IMG/VR virus record: IMGVR_UViG_3300008120_000119
Coordinates: 1 to 56,468 of that record
Length of the DNA: 56,468 nt
DNA from: a virus
Taxonomy: Duplodnaviria; Caudoviricetes
Strand: one strand, 5' to 3'
Position numbers and translations under genes: made by a program. Of the stretch, positions 7,033 through 34,262 are shown in pieces. The stretch's first letter is position 1. Every line of letters starts with the position of its first letter. A model generated the notes under the pieces. It did not search any database. It had not been told where the DNA came from and saw only the letters and a list, made by a program, of their open reading frames with translations.

Positions 7033-7231
7033 GATCCCCTCGCATGCACTTGTTGAATGGGTCGTGCCACCGTTCTTTATGGGACGACATAGTTTTATAA
7101 ACAATCGGACGCTTCCCAGGAATGCGTACAATTTTTCGTTCTAGCTCCATGTTCTTAATTCGCCACCGTGCCGCCTTATCAGATATCCGCAGCTCTTCAG
7201 CGAAGTCTTTGATGGTGAAAATCTTCGTCAT
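6962..7231 (-). CDS. Hypothetical HTH-like protein
   Basis: FTIKDFAEELRISDKAARWRI resembles a helix-turn-helix. Confidence 0.55.
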   Translation of the reverse strand: MTKIFTIKDFAEELRISDKAARWRIKNMELERKIVRIPGKRPIVYKTMSSHKERWHDPFNKCMRGDHEKIIDCVIASYVKRKGPVSERQ

Positions 7232-12991: not shown

Positions 12992-13066
12992 CGCGGGGTA
13001 GAGCAGTGGTAGCTCGTCGGGTTCATAGTCCGAAGGTCGTGGGTTCGACTCCCACCCCCGCCACCA
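12992..13066 (+). tRNA. tRNA-fMet (initiator, anticodon CAT) with encoded CCA
   Basis: Cloverleaf: CGCGGGG/CCCCGCC with 1:72 mismatch; D stem GAGC/GCTC (A11:U24); anticodon stem TCGGG/TCCGA; T arm GTGGG-TTCGACT-CCCAC; ACCA end. Confidence 0.92.
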
Positions 13067-16254: not shown

Positions 16255-16305
16255 GCACAAGCAGTTAAACTCAGGCCACCTCAACTTTTCGGATTGATTA
16301 AGGCC

Positions 16306-16824
16306 ATGCCTGAAAAACGAAAGAAGCCCGCGCCCGCAGTGATGGGCCGGCCAACAGACTACTCCCAAGACCTAGCAGACGAGATATGCGATCGCATTGC
16401 GTCCGGACAGCCATTGGTCCGCATATGCAAAGACGAGCACATGCCACATGTCACGACCGTTTACCGTTGGTTAAACAAGAGAGCAGACTTTTGCGACATG
16501 TACGCGAAGGCCAAAGACTCGGCAGCCGATACCCTGGCAGAAGAGATTCAGGACATCGCCGACTCGATTCCGATGGAGACCACCGATAAGGAAGGGAACA
16601 CGCGCTTCGACCCGGCTTACATCAACTGGATGCGCCTCCGGGTGGACGCCCGCAAGTGGACGGCAGCCAAGTTGAAGCCGCGGAAGTACGGTGACCGCCT
16701 GACCCACGCAGGAGACGCTGAGAACCCGATTAAGAGTGAGACGACCATCCAGGCGTCTGAGCTGTTCGCCAGCATCCTGCAAAACATGGAATTGAAGAAG
16801 CAGCAATCAGCAAACGAAAGGTGA
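16306..16824 (+). CDS. terS: Terminase small subunit (Sf6-like)
   Basis: GRPTDYS..LADEIC.RIA.G..L..IC...MP...TVYRW; RVDARKW.AAKLKPRKYGD. Confidence 0.9.
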   Translation: MPEKRKKPAPAVMGRPTDYSQDLADEICDRIASGQPLVRICKDEHMPHVTTVYRWLNKRADFCDMYAKAKDSAADTLAEEIQDIADSIPMETTDKEGNTRFDPAYINWMRLRVDARKWTAAKLKPRKYGDRLTHAGDAENPIKSETTIQASELFASILQNMELKKQQSANER

Positions 16825-16831
16825 GGGAGAC

Positions 16832-17128
16832 ATGGATAGATTCACGCAGATCCGCGCATGGGCGGAGGCCCGCAATTTGGTCGACGGGTCAAACCCGCAG
16901 GCGCAGTTTGTGAAGCTCGCAGAAGAGATTGGGGAGCTCGCCGCGGCAATCGCCAGGAAGAACCACGACGGGGTCGTAGACTCGATTGGAGACGCTGTGG
17001 TAGTCCTGACCATCCTGGCAGCTCAGCATCGGGTGCCGATCGAATCCTGCATAAATGTGGCCTGGGAGCAGATCAAGAACCGCAAGGGCCGCATGGTCGA
17101 CGGCGTCTTCGTTAAAGATGCAGAGTAA
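16832..17128 (+). CDS. MazG-like nucleotide pyrophosphohydrolase
   Basis: KLAEEIGEL...DSIGD...IKNRKGRMVDGVFVK. Confidence 0.88.
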   Translation: MDRFTQIRAWAEARNLVDGSNPQAQFVKLAEEIGELAAAIARKNHDGVVDSIGDAVVVLTILAAQHRVPIESCINVAWEQIKNRKGRMVDGVFVKDAE

Positions 17129-18549
17129 TGGCCGATGAGGTCGCAGCACTCCTCGCTGACCCTGACGTTCAGGCACAGTTCTCCCTTCTCAAGCCGGAGG
17201 AGCAAGTCGCGTGGGCTTGGCGAGCTCAATGGCTGGCAAAGGCTCATGCTCACCAAGTGGTCCCTATTGGGGACTGGTGGTCGATCTGGCTCATGCTGGC
17301 GGGCCGCGGCGCCGGTAAGACACGAACGGCAGCCGAGCAGGTTGGCTGGTGGGCCTGGACTGAGCCCGGTACCCGCTGGCTTGTCGGGGCACCGACGTCG
17401 TCTGATGTTCGCGCTACCTGCTTCGAGGGCGACTCGGGTCTTCTGTCTGTTATTCCTACCGCACTGATCGCCGACTACAACCGGGCCTTCCACGAGCTTA
17501 AGCTCACCAACGGCTCGATGATTAAGGGTATTCCCGCATCCGAGCCTGAGCGCTTCCGGGGGCCGCAGTTCCATGGGGCATGGCTCGACGAGCTGGCCGC
17601 CTGGGACTATCTGCAAGAGGCCTGGGACCAGATCATGTTCGGCGTCCGCCTGGGCAAGAAGACCCGTATCGTGGCCACCACGACCCCCAAGCCCAAAGAT
17701 TTGATCATCGAGCTCGTGGGCCGGGACGGTGACGACGTGGTCGTGACGACGGCCAGCACCTACGCCAACATCGACAACCTAGCCCCAAGCTTCCAGAAGC
17801 AGATCCTCCAGTACGAGGGGACCAAGCTCGGGCGCCAGGAGATCTACGCCGAGATCATCGATCCTGAAGAGGGCGGCATTGTGCAGCGCGACATGTTCAA
17901 GCTCTGGCCGGACGGGAAGGAGTTCCCCAAGTTCGAGTACATCGTCCAGAGCTACGACTGCGCGTACACCGAGAAGACCATGAACGACCCGACCGCCTGC
18001 ACGGTCTGGGGGGTCTTCAAGCCCTTAGACGGGCCTATGAGCGTCATGCTGATAGACGCATGGCAGGACCGCCTACAGTACCCCGACCTGCGGCCCAAGG
18101 TGATTGAGGAGTACGAGACGGTCTTCGGCGAGGGCAAGGGCAAAAAGCGGGTGGACCTGATCCTGGTAGAGGACAAGAGCGCAGGTATCAGCCTGATACA
18201 GGACTTGCAGCGGGCCCACCTGCCGGTCAGAGCGTACAACCCCGGGCGGGCAGACAAGGTGCAGCGCTTAAACATCGTGGCCAACATCATCGCCCGCGGC
18301 CGTGTCTGGATACCGGAGAGCAGCAAGCGCAAGGGCTACGTGCGTGACTGGGCCGAGGGGTTTGTGAGTCAGATCTGTTCGTTTCCTGAGACGACCCACG
18401 ACGACTATGTAGACGCCTGCACCCAGGCGCTGCGGTTCCTGCGGGACTCGGGCTGGCTGGAGATTGACCCGCCGCCCCAAGATGACTGGGACGAGGAGGA
18501 CTTCGTTGACAGCGGTCAGCCTAGACGGACAAACCCTTACGCCGTATGA
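17128..18549 (+). CDS. terL: Terminase large subunit
   Basis: Walker A GRGAGKT, Walker B WLDE, TTTP coupling motif, C-terminal RNase H-like HDDYVDA. Confidence 0.95.
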   Translation: MADEVAALLADPDVQAQFSLLKPEEQVAWAWRAQWLAKAHAHQVVPIGDWWSIWLMLAGRGAGKTRTAAEQVGWWAWTEPGTRWLVGAPTSSDVRATCFEGDSGLLSVIPTALIADYNRAFHELKLTNGSMIKGIPASEPERFRGPQFHGAWLDELAAWDYLQEAWDQIMFGVRLGKKTRIVATTTPKPKDLIIELVGRDGDDVVVTTASTYANIDNLAPSFQKQILQYEGTKLGRQEIYAEIIDPEEGGIVQRDMFKLWPDGKEFPKFEYIVQSYDCAYTEKTMNDPTACTVWGVFKPLDGPMSVMLIDAWQDRLQYPDLRPKVIEEYETVFGEGKGKKRVDLILVEDKSAGISLIQDLQRAHLPVRAYNPGRADKVQRLNIVANIIARGRVWIPESSKRKGYVRDWAEGFVSQICSFPETTHDDYVDACTQALRFLRDSGWLEIDPPPQDDWDEEDFVDSGQPRRTNPYAV

Positions 18550-18579: not shown

Positions 18580-21500
18580 ATGACTGAAGATGATATCCGG
18601 CTGGCCATGGAGCTGTTCGGCGGTAAAGGCTATAAAGACCCGCTCAACAAATACAACAGATCGCGGGAAATTCCGCCCGCACCGACCGGGAGGCGGTCAG
18701 CACTTGATGCCGCTAGGTTCCCAAAGGTGGGCAGGGGCACAGAAGTCTACGGGATTGAGGACGAGCTTCAAGAGTCGGAGCGCAAGAGCCGCGAAGCCAC
18801 CATCGCAGGCCTTGACCCGTTAGAACAATTGCAGGCAATCGGCGAAGGCGGTAGGGCCGTTGGACAGGGGCTCGTAGCAGGAGTCTTGCAGCCGTTCGCT
18901 CAGGTCATGGGCGTCCCCGCCGATAAATTCTTTAACGCGGCTATTGACTTTCCAGAAACCGAAGGTGGCAAAGCGTACGCACGCAAGGGCGCAGACGCAG
19001 CGCTAGGCTTCTTCGATGCAATGTCAGAGAGCCCGCTGGGCCCGGTGCTCAGCAAGATCCCCATGAGCCCATACAGCCCCGCCTCAGCTCAGGCAATCGA
19101 TACGGGACTCATGGCCGCCGGCAAGGGGCTGAAGCTCGCAGGTCAGCAGGCTAAGCAGGCTGGCAGGCAGACCCTGGAGGCCGGCAAGGATCTGGCTCAG
19201 GCAGCTCGGGCAGAGTTCGCTACCCCGCCGACGGGCGCGGTGCAGCTCCAGACCCAGCAGGCCACACGCAACCCGCTAGGCATGTACTCCCAGGCCGAGC
19301 AGGTAGCGCTCAATCTTGCTCAGGAGAAGGGCACGGGCAATCAGTTCCTGGCCCAGATCAGCAAGGCGCCAGGAGTCAAGCCCGCGGAGCTGGAGTGGAC
19401 GGGCCTCGCAGACTTCTTGAAGAGTAAGGGCGACAAGCCGGTCACTAAGGCAGAGATCCAGCAGCACCTTGACGCCAACCGCGTGCAGGTGCAAGAGGTG
19501 CAGTTAAGCGGCACGGTTCCGTACAACAGGGTCAGAACAGTCGAAGATCAAATCCCCGAGGGGTTTCATTACGAAGAGGTGCTCGATCGTGACGGTGAGC
19601 CGACCGGCATGATGAGAATCTACGACTCGGACGGTGATCTTGTTTCTGAATCCAGCGACCCAGAGCAACTGATGCGTCGCGCTGGGTTGAAGTATGAAGA
19701 AACCGAACCCGACGCAAAGTACGGTGAGTGGCAACTACCCGGCGGTTATAACTATCGAGAGGTGTTGCTGACGTTGCCGCAAAAAGTAGAAAAAGGTTTT
19801 ACGACACCGAATGGTGCGTTTTTTTCAGAGGCAGATTTAGAAAATCCAGTAGTACGGTCAACGGCGGAAAAAATAGGCTTGTCACCGGCCTTTAGAAATG
19901 TTGGCACTGTTTATGAATCTCCCCACTTCGATCAGCCCAACGTTCTGGCCCATATGCGCCTGAACGACCGCCTTGATGCTGATGGCAATAGGGTTCTATT
20001 TGTTGAAGAGATTCAGTCCGACTGGGGGCAGCAGGGTAGGGAGAAGGGGTTTGCAATTAAAGAAACGCCTTGGGATGACCCCGAATATAAAGCCGCTAGA
20101 GCAAGGTCCACTGAGTTACTTAATGAGTACAACAGGAACAACGATGACCTCATTCGTCAAAATGAAATAAGACCGCTTTTGGATGAGGCTAGAAGGCTTG
20201 AACACTCTTTTTTGGGTAAACGCGGCGCACCTCCCGCCCCCTTCGTACAGAACACAGAAGACTGGGTCAACCTATCTCTAAAGCGCCTGATCACCGACGC
20301 AGTCAATAACGGTTATAAGAAGGTCGCATTCATCAATGGTGATCAGTCTGCTGCACGGTATGACTTGAGTAAACATGTTGATGAGCTCTATTACATGCCC
20401 AAGTCCAACACCCTTGTTGCTACAAAGAATGGCCAGGAGGCGTTTAATCAAAGAGTGCCAGCCGACAAATTGGCTGACTACATTGGCAAAGATGCGGCCG
20501 AGAAATTATTGGTTGCTCCAGGTCCAGGCCCCCAGAATCTTTCTGGCTCTTCCATTCGGAAACTGTCCGGCGTAGACCTCAAGGTCGGCGGCGAGGGCAT
20601 GAAGAAGTTCTACGACCAGATCGTGCCGGCCACCGCAAATAAACTCCTGAAGAAACTGGGCGGCGGGAAACTGGAGCCCCTAAAGATCGGCGACAACGAG
20701 CAACTAGGATTCACCATCACGCCGGAGATGGTCGAGCTGGTGAAGAAGCAAGGCCTGCCGATGTTCGCTGGTGGTGGCGCAATCACTATGGCCAAGGGCG
20801 GAGAGGCTGAGCTAGATAACTACGCTTTGGCCGAGGCGGAGATGCAACAAGAGATAGAAGATGCTTTGGCCTACGAAAAACTTAACAGACTCCTGCGGGA
20901 GACCGAAGCTAAGTTGCGAGAGGGCTTGATCACCCCAGAAGAAGCGGTGCCCTTGATGGGTGGATTAAACGCTTATGAGATCGCTCGATTGTATGGGCTG
21001 CCAACAGATGATTATGTTCGGCCACAATTATCTTCAGACAATCCCGAGCAACATTACGATCTCATGCTCAGCCCAGAAAAATTGTCTCACATGGCTAGGC
21101 GTCATCGGGATTACGATCGCCGGATGAAGCAACATGAATACGGCCCCGATTCAGAAGAGGTGGAGGTTAACCTTGCCATTGGGGGCGGCGCGTTCAAGGG
21201 AATGAAGCAAGGCCTTCAGAGGGCGGCAAAAGGCCCCGGAAAGACAGAAGACCCAGCTAAGAAAGCATCGAAGGCGCAGCGCCGTGAAGTGCGCGTGCAG
21301 AAGAACCTGGAAGCGTACATGGGCTCAAAAGAGAAGCCCAAGACCTATTACCACGCCACCCAGGCCCCGGAAGACTTCGAGGCGTTCGACCTTGAGAAGC
21401 GCCCGACTAAGAGGTCAGCCGCGGCCGTGTTTGTCACGCCCAGCACCAACTGGGCAAACGACTGGGCCGTAGATGAGCTGGCCGACATGGACCTGCTGGA

Positions 21501-24500
21501 GAAGGTGGATACGCCCAAGCCGCGGATCATGCCTGTCATTACACGGGCGAAGAACACGTTCGATTACGACGATCTTGGCCATGTCACGCAGGTGATGAAT
21601 CAAGCAGATCTGCCGCCGGGGCTTGACCGCCAACACATTGCAGACCAGATCTCTATCGGCAACTGGAATTTCATCGAAGACCGCAACATTCAGAAGGCCA
21701 TCAAAGATCTGGGCTTTGACAGCTTCTTCGTCAAAGAGAAGGGCGTGAAGAACATGGGTATCTTCAACCCGGGAGACGTGAAGGCGCTGTTTAATCGCGG
21801 GTCATACGATCCCACGACCGCAGACATCTCGAAGGCAGACGGCGGGAGGATCAGCGCCGACGATATCCGACAAAAATTAAAGAACGCCTTTAACTTTGCA
21901 GGCGGTGGCGGTGTGGGGCTCCGGGGCGCTATGCGTGGTCTTGAGGCCGTGCAGTCTGGGGCGGACAAGGCCAAGCCCGCGGTCAGCCGCATCGATATGA
22001 GCTACAAGGACGTCACCAAGCGCGTTCCTGAGCTCACAGAGGCCGCCAAGAAGGTCGAGGCTGGTGAGATGAACGCCGAGGAGTACGCGGGCCTTGTGGG
22101 CGAGGTAAAGCCCGTGGAGCCCTATGCATTCGTTCCGCAGCCGGCCAGCGCAGAAGACGCCATGCGTGCGCTGACTGAGAACAAGCGCCCGATGTTTGGT
22201 AAGACCGGAGAGCTCAAGCCTGGGGAGCGCGCAGACCTGCGCCTCGATATCCCTGCCTATAAAGACCATGGGGTCTGGATCAACTCGATCCACCGTGCGA
22301 GTGGCCCGACAGTCTATGGTTCGGTCTCTTCGGTGAAGAATGCCACCATGATTGGTGCGCCTGAAAAGGCTCTGAAGGTCGCGACCGGCCAGACGCCGAA
22401 GTCTCCATTTGCGGTGATCCGCGGCGAGTGGAACCCGGTCAGCGAAGAGGAGGCGGTGGCCAAGGCGCAGCTCTACATGCAGAGCCCCGAGTGGGTGCAG
22501 GTGGGTTACGACCCCGAGCGCGCTGGATACTTCTACGATCGCAAGACACGCAAGCCCGTGACCGCGGCCGAGGAGGTGCTACAGATCGGCCCGCTCGTAC
22601 TGGCCAAGAAGCCGAAGTTCTCGGACGTGAAAGATCAGAAGTTCGCAGAAGGTGGCGCCACGTCGAACACCCTCCTGGAGCGCCTGCGGAGGTACAAAGT
22701 CGGCGGGGCAGTCTCGGGGGCCCAGAAAGGTCTGAAAGCCGTCTCGAAGTCAACGAAATCCGCTAAGCCCGCCAAGGCAACAGAGCCAGCCAAGACTGAG
22801 TCCGTCATTGAGGACTGGCAGTGGCGACCCAACGAGCAGGTCACCGCCGAGGTGGGGCTCAAAGAGGTGCCCGACTACATCCAGGGCGGATATGGCGAGT
22901 TCATGAAGGGCCAGCAGAAGCGAGCCCAGGCAGGCCAGATGGGCGTGCGCGACCTCATCAAGGCCTACACCATCACCCGGTCTAGCGTGAACCGCTCCGG
23001 TTTGCCACGAGACACGGCCACTAAGACGGGAATGAAGATCCCTCAGACAGATGGTCTTGTCCGCCCCGAGGGCGCCTTTGCCGAGTGGCTGGGGTCCAAG
23101 CAGGGGCAGAACTATCTGAAGGCAGCAGACCGCGGCGAGATCGACGAGAAGGCGATTGCCGACTTGCAGACGAAGTTTGCCCCCTTCGGTATGGCATCGG
23201 TCCTGGCAGACGACATGCGCTGGGCGGTGAAGAATGCGCCCACTCTAGCGTCGAACCTGTCGCAGACCATCATCGGTGACCCGCAGACATATCGGTCGGT
23301 CTCCCAGCAGCTCCAGGGCATCGGTCCGGCTAAATCAGGGTTCCTCGGGTCACTCGTTGGCCGCGGCGACTTCCCCACGCTCGATGCCCGTCAGCTTCGG
23401 TTGCACACGGGGGCAGGCGGTGCAGAGGCCTCGAAGTTCATGCGGCGCCGCGGTGGCTTGGGCGGTGAGCAGGCAGTCGGCCGGCTGGCTGGTCGCCAGG
23501 AAGAGATGGGCCTGGATATCGACCCGTCACTCAATCCCTTCTATCAGCACCTGACGCACCACGCCGTGTGGGACAAGGTGGCCGACGAGCAGACCACGCA
23601 CGACGATCTTGTGCGGGCCATGATGGGTTACAAGGACGGCGGTGAGGTAAAGCTCTCCAGAGGGGGCGGAGACCTCTTGGGGCGCATGGAAAAGGGCCTA
23701 AGAGCGGCGCAAAAGGGCACCGAGAAGAAAGCTAAGAAGGATAAGCCGCCACCGAAATTTGAACCGGCCCCGGCTATTCCCAAAGAGCAGATTCGGAGCA
23801 TGGCTGAGCGTATCGCGCAGCAGACAACCGGCGAGTTTGTCCGCCAGAACCCGAAGACCACTCAGAACCCGGAAGGGCTCTCAAAGGTTCAGTTCGAGCG
23901 GACGAAGGCCGTCAAGCCGAACATCAAGTACAACGTCCCCCAAAAGGATGCGCCGGTCGTTGATATCGAAAAGTACAAGGATTACCTGCTTGTAGGTGTT
24001 CCTGGAGACATCACACCTGGAGGCGTCATTCGTACTGACCCCGTTGATTTAAAGCCACGCGCCACGCAAGAGTTACTTGGCATCGATGACGTAGAGTTTG
24101 AGACGCCGGTAGGAATGTATGGTGGCAGCCGTTACGGGCAAGAAAGTGTGTTCCCCGAAGGGCTCGAAGCTTTCTGGGCCTCTGGTTTGAGTCCTGCACG
24201 TGCGCTGCAAAACTCAATAACCAGATTTTCTGAAGCGGAGGGCGGCCGTCCGGTTCTGGGCATGTTCTCTAAGATGAGTCGGCCGGCTTCTTCATTCTCT
24301 GGTCACTTAATGGAGGGTTTGCTGGAGTACCAGCACCCAGAGAGACTGCCTAAAGCGAAGATACGAGAGCTTAATGAAATTGTGCGACGTGGCACGCCAA
24401 GCAAACAATTCCCAAACTTTGTAGGGTTTGAAGATCCGGAAAAGATGCGGGTGCAAGCAATGCAGGACGGTAAGTTGAGGACGCACATAAACAACGTATT

Positions 24501-24954
24501 GACAATGTCTACGTTGAATAAGCAGCTAGGCCTGGACCCCAAAAAAGGATTGCGATCTGGGCTAGATGTCTCGGCGGCAATGACAATCCCTGAGCTTTCA
24601 GGGCTTGAGGTGGGGGCTAGTGGATATTCGTTAGGTCGCATGGTTCCTGGCGCTGATTTAAGGTTAAGCGCTCACCCAACGTACTCGCAAGACATTTCCG
24701 GTGAATTTCTGGGACGTACGCCTTATCACATTCCGTATGAGCTAGCGTACCCCCGGACTGCACATTTTGTGCGCGAAAACATTCCCCGTGGAGAGCTGTT
24801 TAACACCATGAAGGGCACGGGCATGAAAGAGCAGATCGACCAGCAATATATTGATCAGATCAAGCTCTACCAGCAGTACATGAAAGAATTGACGGGTCGC
24901 AAGAAGGGTGGGCTCGCCACAATCAAAAAAGCGAAGGTGAAAAATGGCAACTGA
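18580..24954 (+). CDS. Large polyvalent protein (2124 aa): EEIQSD domain, ART-like domain, HhH-glycosylase-like domain and two unassigned domains separated by xxGG motifs
   Basis: YHAT...VFVT...GFDS...IFNPGDVKALFNRGSYD (polyvalent-protein ART pattern); LQGIGPAKSGF...PTLD (HhH-GPD pattern); LFVEEIQSDW. Confidence 0.75.
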   Translation: MTEDDIRLAMELFGGKGYKDPLNKYNRSREIPPAPTGRRSALDAARFPKVGRGTEVYGIEDELQESERKSREATIAGLDPLEQLQAIGEGGRAVGQGLVAGVLQPFAQVMGVPADKFFNAAIDFPETEGGKAYARKGADAALGFFDAMSESPLGPVLSKIPMSPYSPASAQAIDTGLMAAGKGLKLAGQQAKQAGRQTLEAGKDLAQAARAEFATPPTGAVQLQTQQATRNPLGMYSQAEQVALNLAQEKGTGNQFLAQISKAPGVKPAELEWTGLADFLKSKGDKPVTKAEIQQHLDANRVQVQEVQLSGTVPYNRVRTVEDQIPEGFHYEEVLDRDGEPTGMMRIYDSDGDLVSESSDPEQLMRRAGLKYEETEPDAKYGEWQLPGGYNYREVLLTLPQKVEKGFTTPNGAFFSEADLENPVVRSTAEKIGLSPAFRNVGTVYESPHFDQPNVLAHMRLNDRLDADGNRVLFVEEIQSDWGQQGREKGFAIKETPWDDPEYKAARARSTELLNEYNRNNDDLIRQNEIRPLLDEARRLEHSFLGKRGAPPAPFVQNTEDWVNLSLKRLITDAVNNGYKKVAFINGDQSAARYDLSKHVDELYYMPKSNTLVATKNGQEAFNQRVPADKLADYIGKDAAEKLLVAPGPGPQNLSGSSIRKLSGVDLKVGGEGMKKFYDQIVPATANKLLKKLGGGKLEPLKIGDNEQLGFTITPEMVELVKKQGLPMFAGGGAITMAKGGEAELDNYALAEAEMQQEIEDALAYEKLNRLLRETEAKLREGLITPEEAVPLMGGLNAYEIARLYGLPTDDYVRPQLSSDNPEQHYDLMLSPEKLSHMARRHRDYDRRMKQHEYGPDSEEVEVNLAIGGGAFKGMKQGLQRAAKGPGKTEDPAKKASKAQRREVRVQKNLEAYMGSKEKPKTYYHATQAPEDFEAFDLEKRPTKRSAAAVFVTPSTNWANDWAVDELADMDLLEKVDTPKPRIMPVITRAKNTFDYDDLGHVTQVMNQADLPPGLDRQHIADQISIGNWNFIEDRNIQKAIKDLGFDSFFVKEKGVKNMGIFNPGDVKALFNRGSYDPTTADISKADGGRISADDIRQKLKNAFNFAGGGGVGLRGAMRGLEAVQSGADKAKPAVSRIDMSYKDVTKRVPELTEAAKKVEAGEMNAEEYAGLVGEVKPVEPYAFVPQPASAEDAMRALTENKRPMFGKTGELKPGERADLRLDIPAYKDHGVWINSIHRASGPTVYGSVSSVKNATMIGAPEKALKVATGQTPKSPFAVIRGEWNPVSEEEAVAKAQLYMQSPEWVQVGYDPERAGYFYDRKTRKPVTAAEEVLQIGPLVLAKKPKFSDVKDQKFAEGGATSNTLLERLRRYKVGGAVSGAQKGLKAVSKSTKSAKPAKATEPAKTESVIEDWQWRPNEQVTAEVGLKEVPDYIQGGYGEFMKGQQKRAQAGQMGVRDLIKAYTITRSSVNRSGLPRDTATKTGMKIPQTDGLVRPEGAFAEWLGSKQGQNYLKAADRGEIDEKAIADLQTKFAPFGMASVLADDMRWAVKNAPTLASNLSQTIIGDPQTYRSVSQQLQGIGPAKSGFLGSLVGRGDFPTLDARQLRLHTGAGGAEASKFMRRRGGLGGEQAVGRLAGRQEEMGLDIDPSLNPFYQHLTHHAVWDKVADEQTTHDDLVRAMMGYKDGGEVKLSRGGGDLLGRMEKGLRAAQKGTEKKAKKDKPPPKFEPAPAIPKEQIRSMAERIAQQTTGEFVRQNPKTTQNPEGLSKVQFERTKAVKPNIKYNVPQKDAPVVDIEKYKDYLLVGVPGDITPGGVIRTDPVDLKPRATQELLGIDDVEFETPVGMYGGSRYGQESVFPEGLEAFWASGLSPARALQNSITRFSEAEGGRPVLGMFSKMSRPASSFSGHLMEGLLEYQHPERLPKAKIRELNEIVRRGTPSKQFPNFVGFEDPEKMRVQAMQDGKLRTHINNVLTMSTLNKQLGLDPKKGLRSGLDVSAAMTIPELSGLEVGASGYSLGRMVPGADLRLSAHPTYSQDISGEFLGRTPYHIPYELAYPRTAHFVRENIPRGELFNTMKGTGMKEQIDQQYIDQIKLYQQYMKELTGRKKGGLATIKKAKVKNGN

Positions 24955-27496
24955 ATTCCCGATTGATCAAGAAGCCGACCGCTTCATTCCTGGAATCCCT
25001 GGGCAGCAGCCCGAAGAGGAGGAAGAGGGCGCCGAGCTTGAGCTAGTTCTCGACGATTCCGAGCTCGAAGAGCTGCCAGACGGCTCTGTGGTGGTCAAAA
25101 TGGACACCCAGGGGCCCATGGAGAACGAAGATTTCTACCAAAACCTCGCAGATTCTGACGTTCTGGACTCCTACGACCTGTCCGTGATGGCCATGAAGTA
25201 CATCGAGCTGGCCGAAAAGGACAAAAAAGCCCGTGAGCAGCGCGATAAGCAGTACGAAGAGGGCATCCGCCGCACCGGACTGGGCAACGACGCACCTGGG
25301 GGCGCGAATTTCAACGGCGCCAGCAAGGTCGTACACCCCGTAATGGCCGAAGCCTGCGTCGATTTCGCTGCCCGCGCCATTAAAGAGCTGTTTCCGCCCG
25401 ATGGTCCGACCAAAACGAAGATCCTGGGCGACGTCACAGAAGACAAAGTGCAGATCGCCGAGCGCAAACGCGACTGGTTTAACTGGCAGATCACCGAGCA
25501 GATCGAAGAATTTCGCGATGAAGAGGAGCAGATGCTCACGCAACTGCCTCTTGGGGGCTCCCAGTTCCTGAAGTTCTGGTACGACGAGCAGAAGCGCCGG
25601 CCGTGTATGCAATTCCTGCCGATCGACAACATTTTGCTGCCCTATTCCAGCGGAAACTTCTACACCTCGCCCCGCGTGACTGAGGTCGACGACATTTCCG
25701 AGTACGAATACAAGCGTCGGATCTCTTCTGGCCTGTATCGGGACATCTCTTACATCCGCGCCAGCATGGACCCGGAGCAGACCGGTCCTCAAAAGGCCAC
25801 CGACAAGGTCGAAGGCAAGTCTCAGAACGATAACGAAGACGGCACGCGCCGCATGTACCACATCTATACGTGGCTAGAGCTCGAAGATGACAAGTACAGC
25901 AAGGGTGAGCTCGCTCCCTACATTTTGATGATCGATGAGATGGAGAACGAGATCGTCGGTCTGTACCGGAACTGGGAAGAGGGCGACCAAACGATGACCA
26001 AGCTCGACTGGATCGTCGAGTACAAGTTCATTCCCTGGCGTGGCGCTTACGCTGTTGGCCTGCCGCACCTGATTGGCGGGCTGTCTGCTGCACTGACGGG
26101 TGCGCTGCGGGCGCTTCTGGACTCCGCGCACATCAATAACGCAGCCACCATGCTGAAACTTAAGGGGGCGAAGGTCTCCGGCCAGTCCCAGCAGGTTGAA
26201 GTCACCCAGGTGGCGGAGATTGAGGCGGCCCCAGGCGTGGATGACATCCGCAAAGTGGCGATGCCCATGCCATTTAACCCGCCCAGCCCGGTGCTTTTTC
26301 AGCTCTTAGGCTGGCTCACGACGTCCGCTAAGGGGGTAGTGACCACCGCGGAAGAAAAGATCGCTGACGTCAATTCTCAGACCCCTGTGGGCACGACTCA
26401 GGCCCTCATTGAGCAGGGCGCAGCAGTTTTCTCGTCCATTCACGCCCGATTGCACGAGTCGCAGGCCCGCGTACTGAAGATTCTGTCGCGAATCAACCGC
26501 TGGTACCTCGATGACATGCGTCGCACCGAGGTGGTGGAGGACCTGGAGGTTAAGCGTGAGGATTTCGCCCGGGTAACGGACGTGATTCCGGTCTCAGACC
26601 CGCATATCTTCTCGGAAACGCAGCGGATGGCCCAAACCCAGGCGGTTATGGCCATGATGAAAGAGAATCCGGACCTATTCAACCGCAAGGCGGTGGTCAC
26701 GCGGTTCTTAAAGCAGATCAAGGTGCCGAACATCAACGAATTGATGCCGGATACGCCCGCCCCCACCAAGATGGACGCTGCCAACGAGAACGTGGCCATG
26801 GCGATCGGGCAGGCTGCCTATGCTTACCCCGAGCAGGACCATCTGGCACACATTCAGGCGCACCTGGACTTCGCTAAGAGCCCGATCTTCGGTGGCAACC
26901 CCATCATTGCGCCTGCATACCTGCCCAAGGCGGCCGAGCACATCAAGCAGCACATGGTCCTGTGGTATCTGAACCGCATGACTGGGTACGCCCAGAAAGC
27001 TTTAGACGCAAAGCTTGGCGATTACGACCTGTTAAGCGACCCCAAAGACGTGGACAAGATCTTCGCCCTGGCCTCGCAGCACGTCGAGATCGACGCCGAC
27101 GAGACTCTGAAGGGCGTGATGCCTGTCGTCATGAAGATGGTCCAGCAGGCGCAGCAGTTCAAGCCGAAACCTCCAATGACTCCCGAGACGCAGGTTCTCT
27201 TGCAGACCTCGATGGCAGAGACGCAGCGCCGTCAGGCCCGCGACGAGGCAGAAATGCAGCTCAAGTCTCAAGAGATGGAGATGGACACGCAGCTGGCGTT
27301 GAAGAAGCAGGCCGACGACATGCAGCTCGCCATGGAAGAGTTGCAATTGAAGCTGGCCATTGCTACCGGCGACCAGGAAACAAAAGAACGCATCGAAACC
27401 GCACGTCTAACACGGGATGCGGCCCGTCTGTCTTTGGATAAGGAAAAGACCGTGTTGGACATCAACCTTAAAGGAGGCCCAAATGGCTACCAGTGA
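24944..27496 (+). CDS. Portal protein
   Basis: 850 aa; VVHPVMAEACVDFAARAIKELFP..GP, PLGGSQFLK, PVGTTQALIEQG; coiled-coil C-terminus; position before scaffold and MCP. Confidence 0.85.
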   Translation: MATEFPIDQEADRFIPGIPGQQPEEEEEGAELELVLDDSELEELPDGSVVVKMDTQGPMENEDFYQNLADSDVLDSYDLSVMAMKYIELAEKDKKAREQRDKQYEEGIRRTGLGNDAPGGANFNGASKVVHPVMAEACVDFAARAIKELFPPDGPTKTKILGDVTEDKVQIAERKRDWFNWQITEQIEEFRDEEEQMLTQLPLGGSQFLKFWYDEQKRRPCMQFLPIDNILLPYSSGNFYTSPRVTEVDDISEYEYKRRISSGLYRDISYIRASMDPEQTGPQKATDKVEGKSQNDNEDGTRRMYHIYTWLELEDDKYSKGELAPYILMIDEMENEIVGLYRNWEEGDQTMTKLDWIVEYKFIPWRGAYAVGLPHLIGGLSAALTGALRALLDSAHINNAATMLKLKGAKVSGQSQQVEVTQVAEIEAAPGVDDIRKVAMPMPFNPPSPVLFQLLGWLTTSAKGVVTTAEEKIADVNSQTPVGTTQALIEQGAAVFSSIHARLHESQARVLKILSRINRWYLDDMRRTEVVEDLEVKREDFARVTDVIPVSDPHIFSETQRMAQTQAVMAMMKENPDLFNRKAVVTRFLKQIKVPNINELMPDTPAPTKMDAANENVAMAIGQAAYAYPEQDHLAHIQAHLDFAKSPIFGGNPIIAPAYLPKAAEHIKQHMVLWYLNRMTGYAQKALDAKLGDYDLLSDPKDVDKIFALASQHVEIDADETLKGVMPVVMKMVQQAQQFKPKPPMTPETQVLLQTSMAETQRRQARDEAEMQLKSQEMEMDTQLALKKQADDMQLAMEELQLKLAIATGDQETKERIETARLTRDAARLSLDKEKTVLDINLKGGPNGYQ

Positions 27497-27638
27497 TCAA
27501 GAGCAAAAGAGCGTACTCGTCAACCAGCACAAGCGGATTGCGATGGGCGCACCTATCAACGGCCAGTCCATGCAGGGCAAGGGCGAGCCACAACAAAACA
27601 AGGGAGGAGCCTTATCGCAGGTAAAAACTAAAAAGTGA
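27483..27638 (+). CDS. Small basic hypothetical protein
   Basis: AAGGAGG RBS; QHKRIAMG motif. Confidence 0.6.
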   Translation: MATSDQEQKSVLVNQHKRIAMGAPINGQSMQGKGEPQQNKGGALSQVKTKK

Positions 27639-27826
27639 GAAGTAGAACCCTAGGTGACTTAATTGGCGCTTTGAAGGCCTCGCAGAGTGAAATAGCTCTG
27701 TCCCTGGCTCGTGGCAACGTGACGACCTGGGAGGCGTATCAAAGGCTGGTGGGGAAGCATGATGGGCTGGAAGAAGCCCTGACAATACTTAATAACCTTC
27801 TAAAGGAAGACAATGAAAATGAGTGA
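27635..27826 (+). CDS. Hypothetical protein (head region)
   Basis: LARG...WEAYQRLVG...GLEEAL pattern, often found upstream of phage groES. Confidence 0.7.
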   Translation: MRSRTLGDLIGALKASQSEIALSLARGNVTTWEAYQRLVGKHDGLEEALTILNNLLKEDNENE

Positions 27827-28250
27827 ACCGGTAGCTTCTAACGAAGCTGAGTTGGCTTGGGCATTTCCGAGCGTAGAACCCGGAGCAAAACCATTAGGTG
27901 GACGTATTCTGGTGCAATTGCGCCGGACGAAGAAGAAGACCACGAGTGCCGGGATTTTGTTGGTTGAAGAAACCAAAGAAACCGAGAAGTGGAACAACAT
28001 GGTCGCCAAAGTCATTGAGATCGGACCCCTGGCATTCCGCCATCGGGACACGATGCAGGCTTGGCCCGAAGGATCTTGGTGCGAGCCGGGTGATTACATC
28101 CGCGTGCCCAAGTGGGGCGGCGACCGCTGGGAAGTCAAAGTACCGGGTGATGATGACCTGGAAGACCCAGCACTGTTCATGATTCTCAACGATCACGAGG
28201 TCATCGCAAAGGTGACGGGTGATCCCCTGGCAATGAGGGCCTTCATATGA
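27819..28250 (+). CDS. groES: GroES-like co-chaperonin
   Basis: KPLGGRILV...TSAGILL...VIEIGP...GDYI...G...ILNDHEVIAKV. Confidence 0.85.
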   Translation: MSEPVASNEAELAWAFPSVEPGAKPLGGRILVQLRRTKKKTTSAGILLVEETKETEKWNNMVAKVIEIGPLAFRHRDTMQAWPEGSWCEPGDYIRVPKWGGDRWEVKVPGDDDLEDPALFMILNDHEVIAKVTGDPLAMRAFI

Positions 28251-29206
28251 GCGAAGAAAACAAAGACGAGAAGATCTCCGTTACCGAGGAGAAAGACGGT
28301 TCGGTCGTGGTCGAGCTGCCCGACAGCATTCCGTCGCCTGAAAACGACGACCAGGATGCTCCCGACGCAGACGATTCCAAAGCAGAGGCTGCACAGGACG
28401 ACGACGACGCCGACCAACCCGATGACACCGACGCGGTACGCGAAGCCCGCAGAGCTCGCCGCAAGGCCAAGAAAGAGCACATGAAGCGGGTGCGGGAGGA
28501 GAAGGACCAGAACTACCTTCTGCTTCAGCGGCAGAACCAAGAGCTCATGGAGCGCCTTGCGAACCTGGAGCGCAAGAACGTGTCCGCGGAGCTTGCACGG
28601 TTCGATGCGGCCATTTCCGAAGAAGAGCGCCGGGTTATGTTCGCCCAGCGCAAGATGCAAGAGGCAACCGACGCATCTGATGGCCAAGCTTTCATCAAGG
28701 CTCAAGAGGCTTGGTATGAGTCCCGCAAGCGCCTGGAATCCATGAAGGCGATCAAGCAGCGTGCAAATGAAAGCGCCGCCCAGCAAACCGGTGCGGTTAA
28801 TCCCAGGCTGCAAAAATATGCATCTGAATGGATGTCACGCAATACTTGGTACGACACAGATTTAAAAGATACCGACAGTCGTATTGCGAAGGTAATCGAT
28901 GAGCAATTAAGCGAAGAAGGTTGGAATCCCGAGACGAAAGATTATTGGGATGAATTTGACAAACGCTTGCAAAATCGGTTACCGCATCTATACAATGATT
29001 CCGATGACGAACAACCAAGGAGGCGTCCCCGTAGCGTAGTGACCGGTTCCGGTCGAGAAGCAACACCATCCCGCGGCGGAAACGTTTTCACCATCTCTCC
29101 GGAGCAGGTGAGGGCGATTAAAGAAGCCGGTATGTGGGATAACCCGGAACAAAGAAATCGCATGATTAAACGGTATGCACTCGAAGCTAAAAAATATAGG
29201 GGATAA
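28247..29206 (+). CDS. Putative capsid scaffolding protein
   Basis: Acidic N-terminus, coiled coil, W...N.W motif; upstream of the MCP. Confidence 0.65.
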   Translation: MSEENKDEKISVTEEKDGSVVVELPDSIPSPENDDQDAPDADDSKAEAAQDDDDADQPDDTDAVREARRARRKAKKEHMKRVREEKDQNYLLLQRQNQELMERLANLERKNVSAELARFDAAISEEERRVMFAQRKMQEATDASDGQAFIKAQEAWYESRKRLESMKAIKQRANESAAQQTGAVNPRLQKYASEWMSRNTWYDTDLKDTDSRIAKVIDEQLSEEGWNPETKDYWDEFDKRLQNRLPHLYNDSDDEQPRRRPRSVVTGSGREATPSRGGNVFTISPEQVRAIKEAGMWDNPEQRNRMIKRYALEAKKYRG

Positions 29207-29211
29207 AAACC

Positions 29212-29754
29212 ATGGATTCACGTCTTAAAAAATCACTTTCCGCCGGTGGACGCGAAACTCGTGCTAGCGAGGACGCTGAAAGAAAACCCCCGGAGGAAAA
29301 GTTCATGTCAGCGCAGGAACGTCGCAAGGCGTGGAGCGATGAGTGGACACAAAGCGCACTGCCAAAGACCCCCGAGATTCCCGGGTGGCACCTTTGCTGG
29401 TTATCGACCACCAACAGTTACGACAGCATCGACAAGAGGATGCGTCTCGGTTACGTGCCCGTGAAAGCGGATGAGTTAACTGGGTTCGACACCTATCGCG
29501 TCAAGTCTGGCGAGAACATCGGTTTTATTGCGTGTAATGAGATGGTTCTGTACAAGATTCCTATGGACCTTTACCAGGACGTCATGCTGCAAATGCATCA
29601 TGAAAAGCCCATGGAAGAGGCCGATAAGATCCGCGTGCAAGCAGAGAACCTTCAGGGTATGCGCGATAGCTCAGGCAAGTCCCTGGGGCAGGTTGAAGGC
29701 GAAGGCTTTGGCGATTTAGACCGAGATGTTAAAACTCCCGTATTTATCGGGTAA
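29212..29754 (+). CDS. Conserved hypothetical head-region protein
   Basis: P..PGWHLCW...RMRLGYVPVK...EMVLYKIP. Confidence 0.6.
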   Translation: MDSRLKKSLSAGGRETRASEDAERKPPEEKFMSAQERRKAWSDEWTQSALPKTPEIPGWHLCWLSTTNSYDSIDKRMRLGYVPVKADELTGFDTYRVKSGENIGFIACNEMVLYKIPMDLYQDVMLQMHHEKPMEEADKIRVQAENLQGMRDSSGKSLGQVEGEGFGDLDRDVKTPVFIG

Positions 29755-29775
29755 TTTAATTTAAGGAGAATTGCT

Positions 29776-30375
29776 ATGTCCGCGACTAGCGCTCCGTTCG
29801 GCCTGCGTCCCGCTTTCCACCCCTCCGGTTTGGATCGCGCTCAGGCGTTGGCTAACGGTATTCAAGCAGTATCAACGGTCGGCAACGTATCTGCCGGTTA
29901 TGCCACCACCATTCTCAAGGGTCAGCCCGTGAAGATGGATACTGGCGGCTATATTGTGGTTGCTGGTACAGGCGACCCGTTCCTTGGTGCCTTTGCAGGC
30001 GTCGAGTGGACCGATGCTACCGGCCGTCGCCGCGTGTCGAACTACTGGCCCGCAAACGAGTCGTTCCAGGTCGGTTCTGTAGTGGCTTACTTCTACAGCG
30101 ACCCCGCCATTGTGTATGAGATTCAGGCTGCTGGTTCCCTGGCTCAGACCTCGATCGGCGACGAGTTCGATATCACCAACTCAACCGCTGGCTCCACCAC
30201 GACTGGTTTGTCGCAGGCTACCCTTGGTACCTCGGCTGCCGGTGCTGGCAGCGCCAAGCAAATGCGTGTTGTAGATCTGGCGCCCTATCCCGACAACGCT
30301 TGGGGTGACAGCTTTACGATCGTCCGTGCAACCATTAGCGAACACCAGTACGCAGGTACTGTGAACGCAATCTAA
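29776..30375 (+). CDS. Putative capsid decoration/cement protein
   Basis: APFGLRP start, beta-rich, immediately upstream of the MCP. Confidence 0.6.
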   Translation: MSATSAPFGLRPAFHPSGLDRAQALANGIQAVSTVGNVSAGYATTILKGQPVKMDTGGYIVVAGTGDPFLGAFAGVEWTDATGRRRVSNYWPANESFQVGSVVAYFYSDPAIVYEIQAAGSLAQTSIGDEFDITNSTAGSTTTGLSQATLGTSAAGAGSAKQMRVVDLAPYPDNAWGDSFTIVRATISEHQYAGTVNAI

Positions 30376-30389
30376 GGAGGGCATAGAAC

Positions 30390-31304
30390 ATGGCCGCCCC
30401 GATGCGTAGTACCGACTTTCGGTCGATTGTTGAGCCAATCCTCAACGAGTGTTTTGACGGAGTCTATGATCAGCGTACCGATGAATGGTCACGGGTTTTC
30501 CGTGAGCAGCAAGGTATCCCCCGTAACTACCACGAAGAGCCCGTCCTGTATGGATTCGGCGCTGCGCCCCAACTGCCTGATGGTACCCCCGTGTCCTATC
30601 AGCAGGGTGGCGTACTCTTCCTGAAGCGCTATGTGTACAACGTGTATGGCCTTGCCTTCGCGCTGACCAAAGTGCTCGTGGAAGACGGCGACCACATCCG
30701 TATTGGTCAGGTTTATGCCCGTCACTTGGCTCAGTCCCTGATTGAGACCAAAGAGACCCTTTCGGCGAACGTTCTCAACCGTGCGTTTAACTCTGCCTAT
30801 CCTGGCGGTGACGGCGTGCAGTTGAACTCCAACGCTCACCCGATCGTGAACGGCACCTTCAGCAACCTGCTGACGACCGCCGCTGTGCTGTCGCAGACCT
30901 CACTTGAGCAGATGCTTATTCAGATCCGCCAAGCAGTGGACAACAACGGCAAGAAGATCCGTCTGGTTCCCCGCCAACTGGTGGTGGCCCCGGGCAACGT
31001 CTTCCAGGCTGAGGTTCTCCTGAAGTCTGTTCTGCGCTCCGGTACCGCCGACAACGACATCAACCCGATCAAGTCCATTGGACTGCTGTCGGAGGGTGCC
31101 GCTGTTCTGTCGCGTCTCACCAGTGCTACGGCATGGTGGGTGCAGACCGACGCGCCGGAAGGTATGAAGCTCATGATGCGTCGTGCTCTTGAGAAGACCA
31201 TGGAAGGTGATTTTGAGACCGATTCCATGCGTTACAAGGCCACGGAGCGTTATGACGTTGGCTTCACCGACCCGCGTGCGATGTACGGTACGCCTGGAGT
31301 CTAA
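30390..31304 (+). CDS. Major capsid protein (Mu gpT-like, HK97 fold)
   Basis: EEPVLYGFGAAP, KETLSANVLNRAF, TADNDINP, GDFETDSMRYKATERY..G.TDPR..YG.PG. Confidence 0.9.
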   Translation: MAAPMRSTDFRSIVEPILNECFDGVYDQRTDEWSRVFREQQGIPRNYHEEPVLYGFGAAPQLPDGTPVSYQQGGVLFLKRYVYNVYGLAFALTKVLVEDGDHIRIGQVYARHLAQSLIETKETLSANVLNRAFNSAYPGGDGVQLNSNAHPIVNGTFSNLLTTAAVLSQTSLEQMLIQIRQAVDNNGKKIRLVPRQLVVAPGNVFQAEVLLKSVLRSGTADNDINPIKSIGLLSEGAAVLSRLTSATAWWVQTDAPEGMKLMMRRALEKTMEGDFETDSMRYKATERYDVGFTDPRAMYGTPGV

Positions 31305-31891: not shown

Positions 31892-33028
31892 ATGGGACAG
31901 TTTAAGCCGATGGTCAAGATGATGACCACAGAGCCCACCGTTGAGTTGAAGCTCAAAAAGGGCGGGAAAGTAGAGAAGAAGATGCAGATGGGTGGCGACC
32001 CAGCCATGGCTCCGGCCGCTGGTTCTATGCCTGCTCGTGGCGGCATGGCGCCCTCACGCGCACCGATGAAGCCTGGGCTCTTTGCCCGTCGTCGCGCTAT
32101 GCGTGGTATGGGCGCTGGTCCTGCGGGCCCCCTTGGCCGCGGTTCCGACATGATGGAAAACATGGAAGCTCGTCGCGCTATGGCCCCGGCTCCCGCCATG
32201 AAGAAGGGTGGCGAGACCAAGGCTGAGCACGCTGCCGAGATGAAGAAGATGGCTGAGACCTCGAAGAAGCTCAAGGAGCACGCCGACAAGCCCGCTAGCA
32301 AGGCTCACAAGGGCCTGAAGACTGGCGGAGTGGTGATGGGCCAAGGCGGCTATAAAGAGGGCGGCATCATCAAGACGATGACCAACAAGACGACCGACAT
32401 GCACACTGCTCATCGTGACACCGATCAGGGTCCGACGGGCGGCGTGAAGCTTGGTAATGGCGGCGGTTACAAGAAGGGTGGCGCAGCGAAGAAGGACTGC
32501 TACGCGACCGGTGGCGTCGTTATGGGCCAGGGTGGGTACAAAGAAGGCGGTGATGTAAAAAAGCAAAAAGCTACGGGAAAAAATGCTAGCGGCGCTCCCG
32601 TAGCTATGCCTCAAGGCCGCAAACCTGCCCCCAAGGCTGTTGCCATCAACGAGCTGTCCGGCACCTATAAAAAGGGTGGCCCGGTCATGACTCCCGCTCA
32701 GAAGCGCTTGGACAACATTTTCCAGAAGGAGAATGCTCCTGCGATGAAGGCGGCCAAGAAGATGAGCAACGAGAAGTACGGTCGCAAAATGGCAAAGGGC
32801 GGAGACGTAAAACGACGCTCATTGACTGACAAATTTCGCGAAGAATCAGGCTTTGGCGATGAAATGAAAGATCTTGTTCAACGCCTTACCCCGCAGCAAG
32901 CAAAACGCGAAAAAGAGTCTAGCGACAGGTACATGAGTGATGGAGCCGTCACTGAGACTGAAAGGTCCGTAACGGTGGTGCCAGGGAAGAAGCACGGCGG
33001 TAAAATGGCCCGAGGCGGCTCTTGCTAA
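31892..33028 (+). CDS. Lys/Gly/Met-rich protein with many xxGG repeats
   Basis: About 15 copies of [L/M/Y/K]xxGG; no recognisable globular domain. Confidence 0.75.
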   Translation: MGQFKPMVKMMTTEPTVELKLKKGGKVEKKMQMGGDPAMAPAAGSMPARGGMAPSRAPMKPGLFARRRAMRGMGAGPAGPLGRGSDMMENMEARRAMAPAPAMKKGGETKAEHAAEMKKMAETSKKLKEHADKPASKAHKGLKTGGVVMGQGGYKEGGIIKTMTNKTTDMHTAHRDTDQGPTGGVKLGNGGGYKKGGAAKKDCYATGGVVMGQGGYKEGGDVKKQKATGKNASGAPVAMPQGRKPAPKAVAINELSGTYKKGGPVMTPAQKRLDNIFQKENAPAMKAAKKMSNEKYGRKMAKGGDVKRRSLTDKFREESGFGDEMKDLVQRLTPQQAKREKESSDRYMSDGAVTETERSVTVVPGKKHGGKMARGGSC

Positions 33029-33857: not shown

Positions 33858-34262
33858 ATGCCAGCCAAAAGCCAAGCTCAGTTTCGCCTGATGAAGGCAG
33901 CCGAAAACAATCCCAAGTTCGCTAAGAAGGTGGGTATTAAACCGGGCGTGGCTAAGGAGTACACTGAGGCTAATGTTGGCAAGAAGTCGTATGCAGAACT
34001 GCCGAAGAAAATGAAGGATGGTGGCCCCTCGCTTGCAATTGGACGCGGTGAAAAACTGCCGGCAGAGCGAGGCGCTGGACTAACGGCCAAGGGCCGGGAA
34101 AAGTACAACCGAGAGACAGGTTCCAATCTCAAGGCTCCACAACCCGAGGGGGGTAAGCGGCGCGATTCGTTCTGCGCCCGGATGGGTCCAGTCGCTGAAA
34201 AAAGCGAGAAAGGAAGTAGAGCGAGGGCTTCGATGAAGCGCTGGAACTGTCCGGGATGGTGA
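33858..34262 (+). CDS. Basic two-domain protein joined by MKDGG; C-terminal part DUF6321-like
   Basis: MPAKS.AQ.RLM...NPKFAKKVGI / MKDGG / GAGLTAKGR.KYNRETGSNLKAP...RRDSFCARM...RWNC. Confidence 0.65.
   Translation: MPAKSQAQFRLMKAAENNPKFAKKVGIKPGVAKEYTEANVGKKSYAELPKKMKDGGPSLAIGRGEKLPAERGAGLTAKGREKYNRETGSNLKAPQPEGGKRRDSFCARMGPVAEKSEKGSRARASMKRWNCPGW

Follow-up and report, generated by a model that had tools for sequence, protein, structure and literature searches.

Phage polyvalent proteins are regarded as the weapons that a phage sends into the host cell before any others, although a single one may exceed 2,000 residues and has to be packed, passed through the tail and turned into working units. 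As proposed in the main text of Iyer et al. 2017 (PMC5512222), one polypeptide of this class is packaged, injected and delivers several effectors, and is then processed into units, a step ascribed to a zincin-like metallopeptidase domain carried in cis. The idea of a single open reading frame (ORF) that delivers a swappable set of effectors, including a proposal for its processing, is thus already present in that work, the main text of which (supplements aside) describes no motif at the junctions and makes no mention of glycine or linkers. Here we analyse the ORF at positions 18580–24954 (+ strand) of an uncultured virus of the Caudoviricetes (IMG/VR record IMGVR_UViG_3300008120_000119); the window is the entire record, 56468 bases long and rated complete. 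The ORF is open throughout and encodes 2124 amino acids (aa), and the boundaries between its modules carry a short motif centred on Gly-Gly, hereafter called the tag. A sequence-only reading of the window had proposed that these tags delimit a system for which it knew of no description. The multi-effector ORF as such had been published (PMC5512222); what is apparently new is the junction motif, together with its arrays in a separate large protein family and its occurrence in tape-measure proteins. No phage paper on the tag strings was found among the matches listed by a literature search (supplementary files lay outside the search), and none of the titles and abstract openings listed for polyvalent proteins dealt with junction motifs.

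By its architecture and gene position, the 2124-aa ORF is a phage polyvalent protein of the class defined by Iyer et al. 2017 (PMC5512222). Like other members, it is a giant, highly mosaic protein of many modules, and its gene lies with the virion genes of a phage of the portal–terminase type. At least six homology blocks recur in differing orders and combinations in 119 homologues (P0003–P0121), and the gene lies between the genes for the large terminase (TerL) and the portal in 17 of 24 related loci, the other seven showing TerL only before the contig ends. The homologues carry ART-PolyVal, LPD23, LPD38, PcfJ, DUF7178 and DUF6321 domains (PF18760, PF18838, PF18857, PF14284 and PF23802 are among the accessions); the only link of the window protein to ART-PolyVal is the alignment of one of its modules, M2, to P0011 and P0060. 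Judged from gene position, the protein would be packaged in the virion and injected, and a tag-less member of the class, gp47 of phage phi24B, is reported to have been detected in virions by proteomics. The window protein departs from the class in one respect, as the in-cis zincin-like peptidase, which is frequent but not obligatory, is missing (no HExxH or HxxEH in the 2124 aa). The protein also contains no cysteine, and any cut must therefore come from elsewhere. Among the homologues, HExxH is present in 9 of the 14 without tags versus 26 of the 105 with tags, samples that are not independent. These counts hint that an in-cis peptidase and tags may be alternative designs, with the nine tag-less HExxH carriers probably representing one lineage.

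The tag was originally written as [FYMLKR]xxGG. In this loose form it occurs 14 times in the 2124-aa ORF versus 5.8 times in shuffled sequences (4 of 2000 shuffles reach 14), a modest excess that includes sites within domains (for example, LKVGG at aa 667), and Gly-Gly itself is not enriched, given that the 24 GG runs are about the number expected at 9.7% Gly. The enrichment that had been proposed is therefore mild for the loose pattern and strong for a sharper one, [FYM][AK]xGG (the sharp tag), which occurs 6 times versus 0.3 expected and reaches this number in none of 2000 shuffles. Across the 119 homologues there are 337 sharp tags versus 24.3 ± 4.7 in shuffles, with at least one in 105 proteins and none in the remaining 14. 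The sequence context of GG in 121 related proteins shows −3 occupied by Tyr, Phe or Met and −2 by Ala or Lys, with Val as the second residue past GG; at −3, Tyr and Phe are enriched about threefold, whereas Leu is not (1.1-fold). Val occupies the +2 position, which lies outside the search pattern, at 195 of 298 tag GGs (65%) versus 161 of 1362 other GGs (12%). Given this independent Val and the enrichment of the tag, the motif is real and is better written with seven residues, [F/Y/M]-[A/K]-x-G-G-x-V. The codons of the tags differ from one another and the signal is thus read in the protein rather than in the DNA; a DNA-level recombination signal was rejected as the main cause for this reason. 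On these counts, selection acts on the motif as a protein sequence; everything that we say below about its function is inferred from sequence. The five strings that had been noted as a repeated basic leader are also present (aa 180–189, 875–885, 1116–1126, 1381–1391 and 1702–1712). A helix of the KGLxxx[AVS]x[KQS] type follows a tag within 30 aa in 7 of its 13 occurrences (0.6 expected), and a looser form of the pattern in 30 of 257 (11.5 expected), so that the association of the leader with the tag holds only in part. At the other end of the proteins, a tag lies within 25 aa of the C terminus in 26 of 106 tag-bearing proteins.

Every tag site listed in the sequence-only reading was recovered at its position, and the sites alternate with blocks that we defined by the ends and starts of BLAST segments (227 segments from the 119 homologues); all of the following coordinates are on the + strand. 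The N region (aa 1–221; 18580–19242) contains AGKGLKLAGQ (aa 180–189) and a disorder-like stretch (aa 173–226). Module M1 (aa 222–728; 19243–20763) is common to approximately 54 of the 119 homologues by per-bin BLAST cover, matches no known family and is followed by the tag pair FAGGG/MAKGG (aa 729–741; 20764–20802). Module M2a (aa 742–864; 20803–21171) is an insert bounded by MAKGG and the tag-like LAIGGG (aa 865–870; 21172–21189) and is absent from P0003, P0004 and P0007. Module M2 (aa 871–1084; 21190–21831) opens with the leader GMKQGLQRAAK; it has no Pfam match of its own, and its C-terminal half aligns (31–41% identity) with parts of P0011 and P0060 assigned to ART-PolyVal by Pfam. It ends in an array (aa 1085–1111; 21832–21912) that runs from KADGG at aa 1085 to FAGGGG at aa 1106 (21895). 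Module M3 (aa 1112–1354; 21913–22641) is about 60% identical across 18 related loci. In an alignment of 19 sequences of the M3 family, the end reads K-[FY]-A-x-G-G with GG invariant, and the start is a KGL-type helix even where M3 is the first module of its protein. The next tag pair, FAEGG ... LLERLRRYKVGG (aa 1355–1376; 22642–22707), comprises FAEGG at aa 1355 (22642) and YKVGG at aa 1372 (22693). Modules M4 (aa 1377–1683; 22708–23628) and M5 (aa 1698–2106; 23671–24897), to neither of which a function was assigned, are separated by the pair MMGYKDGGEV/LSRGGG (aa 1684–1697; 23629–23670), with YKDGG at aa 1684 and LSRGG at aa 1692 (23653). The protein closes with the tag-like RKKGG (aa 2107) and a tail of 13 aa (24898–24951). 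Pfam gave no match above threshold for the whole protein or for its six separate modules, PDB and NCBIfam searches with the whole protein and with neighbouring ORFs returned nothing, and profile searches of the PDB with the M3 and M1 alignments returned nothing significant. In a protein atlas, M1 and a 180-aa ORF of the head module matched unnamed viral clusters only.

The tags coincide with the ends of homology. In the comparison of the window protein with the 119 homologues, segment ends cluster in the 25-aa bins that hold tags (49 of 227 in aa 726–750, 64 in aa 1351–1375, 22 in aa 1676–1700 and 32 in the last bin, aa 2101–2124), and 68 segments start in aa 1076–1150. When the homologues were compared all against all, 5197 of 11169 internal segment ends fell within 12 aa of a tag GG versus 474 ± 22 at random, and 3064 of these fell 0–3 aa past GG; the counts include related sequences and the events are not independent. 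Segment starts are more diffuse (1447 of 12159 near a tag versus 494 at random). The modules vary in order and combination across the homologues, and a tag usually closes each of them, the final module of a protein included. A four-way alignment places M2a exactly between MAKGG and LAIGGG, and M3 plus FAEGG between FAGGG and LLERLRxYKxGG. The same boundaries are visible in DNA: in two loci whose flanking terminase and portal proteins are 98–99% identical to those of the window (L002 and L025), similarity breaks at aa 741 (L002) and aa 738 (L025), resumes at aa 871 in L025 or at aa 893, and breaks again at aa 1107 in L025. In support of the sequence-only reading, modules are gained, lost and reordered at the tags; on the basis of these alignments, the tags mark module ends and modules are exchanged there.

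Outside the polyvalent ORF, the sharp tag occurs 11 times in the other 55 ORFs of the window versus 1.7 expected (none of 500 shuffles reaches this number), and all 11 copies lie in three late genes for which the tag had already been noted: eight in 31892–33028, one in 33858–34262 and two in 1–876, leaving 52 ORFs without any. The first of these genes (31892–33028, + strand) encodes a basic 378-aa protein rich in Gly, Lys, Ala and Met, hereafter the tag-array protein. It belongs to a large family (at 90% identity, at least 4625 clusters; at 50% identity, 353 clusters with E values up to 0.001) that is unannotated and has no Pfam, PHROG or NCBIfam match. The 120 members that we compared (P0124–P0243) carry 4–11 tags each (mean, 7.3), amounting to 876 tags versus 33 expected. 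The N terminus of the family is nearly invariant (MGQFKPMVKMMTTEP) and the C terminus is a conserved Cys (for example, ...GGSC or ...GGSVKC). A tblastn search of GenBank phages with the tag-array protein gave no match, probably owing to the low-complexity filter, and does not indicate absence. The second gene (33858–34262, + strand) encodes 134 aa, in which a 45-aa N-terminal element is followed by MKDGG (nucleotides 34011–34025) and then DUF6321, the domain that forms the final module of the polyvalent protein in related phages. The 45-aa element was considered as a shared pre-tag leader and rejected, as the sole longer homologue has it in an internal, tag-less position.

The third gene is split by the opening of the record. 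The ORF at 52902–56468 (+ strand) encodes a large protein with a hydrophobic N terminus rich in Gly and Ala and is still open at the record end, within an Ala-Pro repeat, and the ORF at 1–876 (+ strand) starts open in a Pro run and contains FKEGG (nucleotides 475–489), FNEGG and YAGGG (nucleotides 538–552). Because Pro/Ala repeats stand at both ends of the record, the two are very likely one gene of approximately 1480 codons, of which ORF 1–876 would be the C-terminal part; with its gene split in this way, the genome would be circularly permuted or cut inside the Pro-rich repeat. After its tags, ORF 1–876 contains an element, DDIPAMLADGEFV, that is common with tape-measure proteins, and four of its five PHROG matches are tape-measure families (aa 173–239; E values of 9e-6 to 7e-4). 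To the tape-measure chain of JBD30 (8rk3_A), the ORF aligns weakly (E = 0.13). We read the combined protein as a probable ejection or tape-measure-like protein.

The same distribution is found in the related long loci, in which tags are almost confined to the polyvalent ORF and to a protein encoded past the capsid gene. Every long locus that has a tagged polyvalent gene and covers this region encodes such a tag-bearing protein, downstream of the capsid gene in all but L001, where it precedes the GroES-like gene. A scaffold-like protein carries one tag at residue 67 in two loci (EMAAGGE in L006, 15522–16538; EMADGGG in L023, 16753–17781) and none in the window, and L023 contains two further stray matches elsewhere.

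Several virion proteins with known or reported cuts contain related sequences. Phage lambda's tape-measure protein, gpH, leaves through the tail and has two sharp tags, FATGG at 732–736 and RGYATGGYV at 775–783, both in its glycine-rich C-terminal region. According to the part of a 2025 report that deals with lambda (PMC12617516), gpH is converted to gpH* by loss of a C-terminal piece (gpHC) of about 14 kDa from the glycine-rich region, and both site and catalyst were stated there to be unknown. The lambda string LMRGYATGGYV resembles MMGYKDGGEV of the window, although both are too short for statistics on homology versus convergence. Relatives of gpH in viral contigs are 88–100% identical, too close for a conservation test, and five variants keep both tags. 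In one lambda-like viral contig (L126; match 301–792), the gpH variant diverges from lambda right after YAEGGYVG and is similar again further on; this resembles a further mosaic joint located at a tag, here in a tape-measure protein. The tape-measure protein of JBD30 reads FASGGHI followed by the D-x-IP...EF element, and the tags and D-x-IP...GEFV element of the ejection protein in the window give it the same likeness to tape-measure families; the JBD30 authors place the cut of their protein at residue 1066, citing the T5 study. In T5, pb2 reads FVPRAEGG with 88 residues past GG, and its C-terminal piece (pb2 → pb2* + pb2C) is quoted as 92 residues (PMC12617516), which would place the cut just before AEGG rather than after GG. 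The lambda and T5 cleavages (PMC12617516; bioRxiv 10.1101/2022.09.20.507954) also differ from the arrangement in the window in being single cuts in a tail protein and not junctions between several effectors.

Proteolysis at a glycine-rich junction is proven for Tal of TP901-1, in which Gly-to-Arg changes are reported to block cleavage (PMC11409707). As here, the motif in Tal of TP901-1 and Tuc2009 belongs to a virion protein, where it marks the exact border between a structural part and a catalytic module, but it reads NGGGNSGGGD, without the aromatic/Met, Ala/Lys and Val positions, and occurs at one site per protein. In adenoviruses (core and capsid precursors) and African swine fever virus (polyproteins), maturation cleavage inside the particle takes place at GG-X, and both encode a dedicated cysteine protease. 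The likeness to the window lies in a short motif ending in Gly-Gly that is shared by several internal virion proteins, including small basic DNA-associated ones; the differences are that no dedicated cysteine protease is detectable here and that the hydrophobic residue is at P4 there and at P5 here. We know of no conserved P2′ residue at those sites. Phage T4 marks its internal proteins with capsid-targeting sequences, short addresses that are removed by the prohead protease; these are likewise shared among cargo proteins, but stand as a single N-terminal copy, whereas the tag is repeated and C-terminal to each module.

Our preferred reading, held tentatively and at somewhat less than an even chance, is that a protease acts in trans on the motif, which would serve as a cleavage site in maturation. 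The ORF would be a large virion cargo assembled from independent cassettes, each with a globular module that is followed by one to four copies of the motif and often preceded by a short basic KGL-type helix with a Lys/Ala/Pro-rich linker, and the same motif marks the other presumed internal or ejected proteins of the phage (the tag-array protein, the DUF6321 protein and the tape-measure-like ejection protein). A candidate protease, either phage-encoded and unrecognized or host-encoded, would split the polyprotein into separate effectors and also shorten the remaining cargo proteins, either within the particle or upon entry into the cell. We infer cleavage, and a protease that acts on the motif, because the anatomy of the ORF is that of a polyprotein; because the motif, with seven residues at fixed spacing and an invariant GG, is similar in length and form to known viral protease sites such as the GG-X sites of adenoviruses and African swine fever virus; because it is found in phage proteins that are known to be cut, the tape-measure proteins; because the class is expected to need processing and this member has no peptidase of its own; and because the tags near C termini (26 of 106 proteins) resemble a short removable tail.

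Several observations weigh against this interpretation. The sequence-only reading had already taken the tag for a protease site and/or a capsid-loading or ejection address, and the searches lent no support to either role: Pfam recognized no protease family in 51 ORFs save the M15 endolysin (three small ORFs were unscanned and many ORFs have no family), and PHROGs and NCBIfam scans of selected late ORFs showed no protease. A conserved Val past GG is unusual for a cleavage site, as is the tandem arrangement, at a distance of 8–9 aa, of 32 of 237 successive tag pairs. In the tag-array protein, conservation extends to the stretches between tags, which would be odd for a protein diced into peptides of 8–50 aa, and the T5 cut precedes AEGG instead of following GG, if the figure of 92 residues is exact. 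No sharp tag is present in the 2617 aa of phi24B gp47 that were examined and no tag was found in distant homologues of M1; tags are therefore not required class-wide. The literature search found no experimental data on any tagged protein, including proteomics of a tagged relative.

A wider form of the cleavage reading, which we consider speculative and rather improbable, is that the motif is a general 'cargo code' of tailed phages, read by a single Gly-Gly-directed processing activity, possibly host-encoded. With similar reserve, its scope would extend to tape-measure proteins, ejection proteins, polyvalent effectors and the basic tag-array family. If so, the activity that makes gpH* in lambda would also free each effector of the polyprotein, and module swapping at tags would be the phage counterpart of cassette exchange between the protease sites of viral polyproteins. 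Whatever its function, a conserved and easily mutated motif of seven residues offers an experimental handle on how such giant proteins are packed, passed through the tail and matured. It also sets module boundaries for hundreds of unannotated cargo domains, draws attention to a very common but unannotated protein family consisting in essence of arrayed copies of the motif, and names two concrete candidate cut positions in lambda gpH.

The weaknesses of the cleavage reading are the strengths of the alternative that survives best, in which the motif is docked and left uncut, a 'sticker' that we regard as possible but lean against. With the same doubt, small Phe/Tyr/Met-Gly-Gly-Val hairpins would attach to a putative repeated partner, be it the inside of the capsid, the portal or core, DNA or one another; no more probably, cargo modules would thereby join the multivalent tag-array protein in one assembly, for joint loading or ejection. 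Multivalency is what the 4–11 tags per tag-array protein and the short arrays in the linkers of the polyvalent protein provide, and the motif is conserved on both sides of GG. Tags are retained at the ends of last modules and close to C termini; the tag-array family is kept position by position along its full length, between the tags as well as at the terminal Cys; and a tag-bearing protein accompanies the tagged polyvalent gene in every long locus that covers the region. Caulobacter phage RW, which has the same head module, jointly lacks the polyvalent gene, the tag-array gene and tags (none in the annotated coding sequences of its 20-kb late region, and two, a chance-level number, among six-frame ORFs from the remaining 42.5 kb). 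RW also speaks on the other side, however, given that the head proteins that could serve as receptors are all present in this tag-free phage. The homology blocks end precisely at GG, as in polyproteins, and the tape-measure motif lies in a tail-tip region that is known to be cut, which fits processing better than capsid docking.

It is unlikely that the motif is only a passive hinge, that is, a Gly-rich turn that insulates folding modules and tolerates recombination joints, with neither partner nor cleavage. Tags do stand at the N-terminal edge of linkers (four of the five stretches that are disorder-like by composition begin directly after a tag or leader), recombination breakpoints coincide with tags, and Gly-rich junctions like that of TP901-1 are common in phage proteins. 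A hinge has no need, however, of Phe/Tyr/Met at −3, Ala/Lys at −2 or Val at +2, the last of these being found at 65% of tag GGs versus 12% of others, and it explains neither the restriction of the motif to 4 of 56 ORFs nor its arrays in a dedicated protein family nor its copies at C termini. Were the motif merely a hinge, the finding would reduce to a useful annotation rule.

The mobile loop of GroES reads x-A-G-G-I-V-L, and the host factor in the cleavage of the T5 tail protein is reportedly GroE. That the tags mimic this loop and recruit host GroEL to the modules, aided by the GroES-like protein of the phage, is very improbable: the head module does encode such a protein (with the loop TTSAGILLV), GG and a branched hydrophobic residue at +2 are common to tags and loop, and host involvement in tail-protein cleavage is named in the title of the T5 paper, but the register differs (A-x-GG in the tag, A-GG in the loop), the tags have no hydrophobic triplet past GG, and RW retains the GroES-like gene without tags.

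The polyvalent gene is embedded in a block of late genes, all on the + strand. It is preceded by the terminase block (16294–18549), which consists of the small terminase gene (16294–16824), an ORF for a MazG-like pyrophosphohydrolase of 98 aa (16832–17128) and the large terminase gene (17128–18549), and its stop overlaps the start of the portal gene (24944–27496). The portal gene opens the head module (24944–31304) and is followed by the genes for the GroES-like protein (27813–28250) and an acidic scaffold-like protein (28247–29206), two ORFs of no known function and the gene for the major capsid protein (30390–31304); this set is kept throughout the clade, including RW. The GroES-like gene is kept in all long related loci, RW again included. 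Further late genes encode a holin (46646–47047), the adjoining M15 endolysin (47044–47511) and an SU10-type adaptor (48127–48771), the last of which points to a short-tailed phage. By portal protein, the nearest named relatives are a Manatee Spring viral genome (61% identity), the Caulobacter phages RW, KcrB, RLK and GB2A (47%), two roseophages (CRP-901 and CRP-902) and two pelagiphages (HTVC023P and HTVC027P).

Elsewhere in the window, the ORF at 6709–7131 (− strand), in the early leftward block, matches Rap1a, a type VI secretion immunity family (E = 6e-17); the same block encodes a PD-(D/E)XK nuclease and a DUF3310 protein, and the next rightward block a SarA/Rot-like regulator. The G+C content, 0.50–0.60 elsewhere, drops to 0.41 at 42001–44000, inside an ORF of 1521 aa (41380–45945), which suggests a recently acquired receptor-binding part. 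A single transfer RNA gene, for tRNA-Met (anticodon CAT; 12992–13066), lies in the replication and recombination region.

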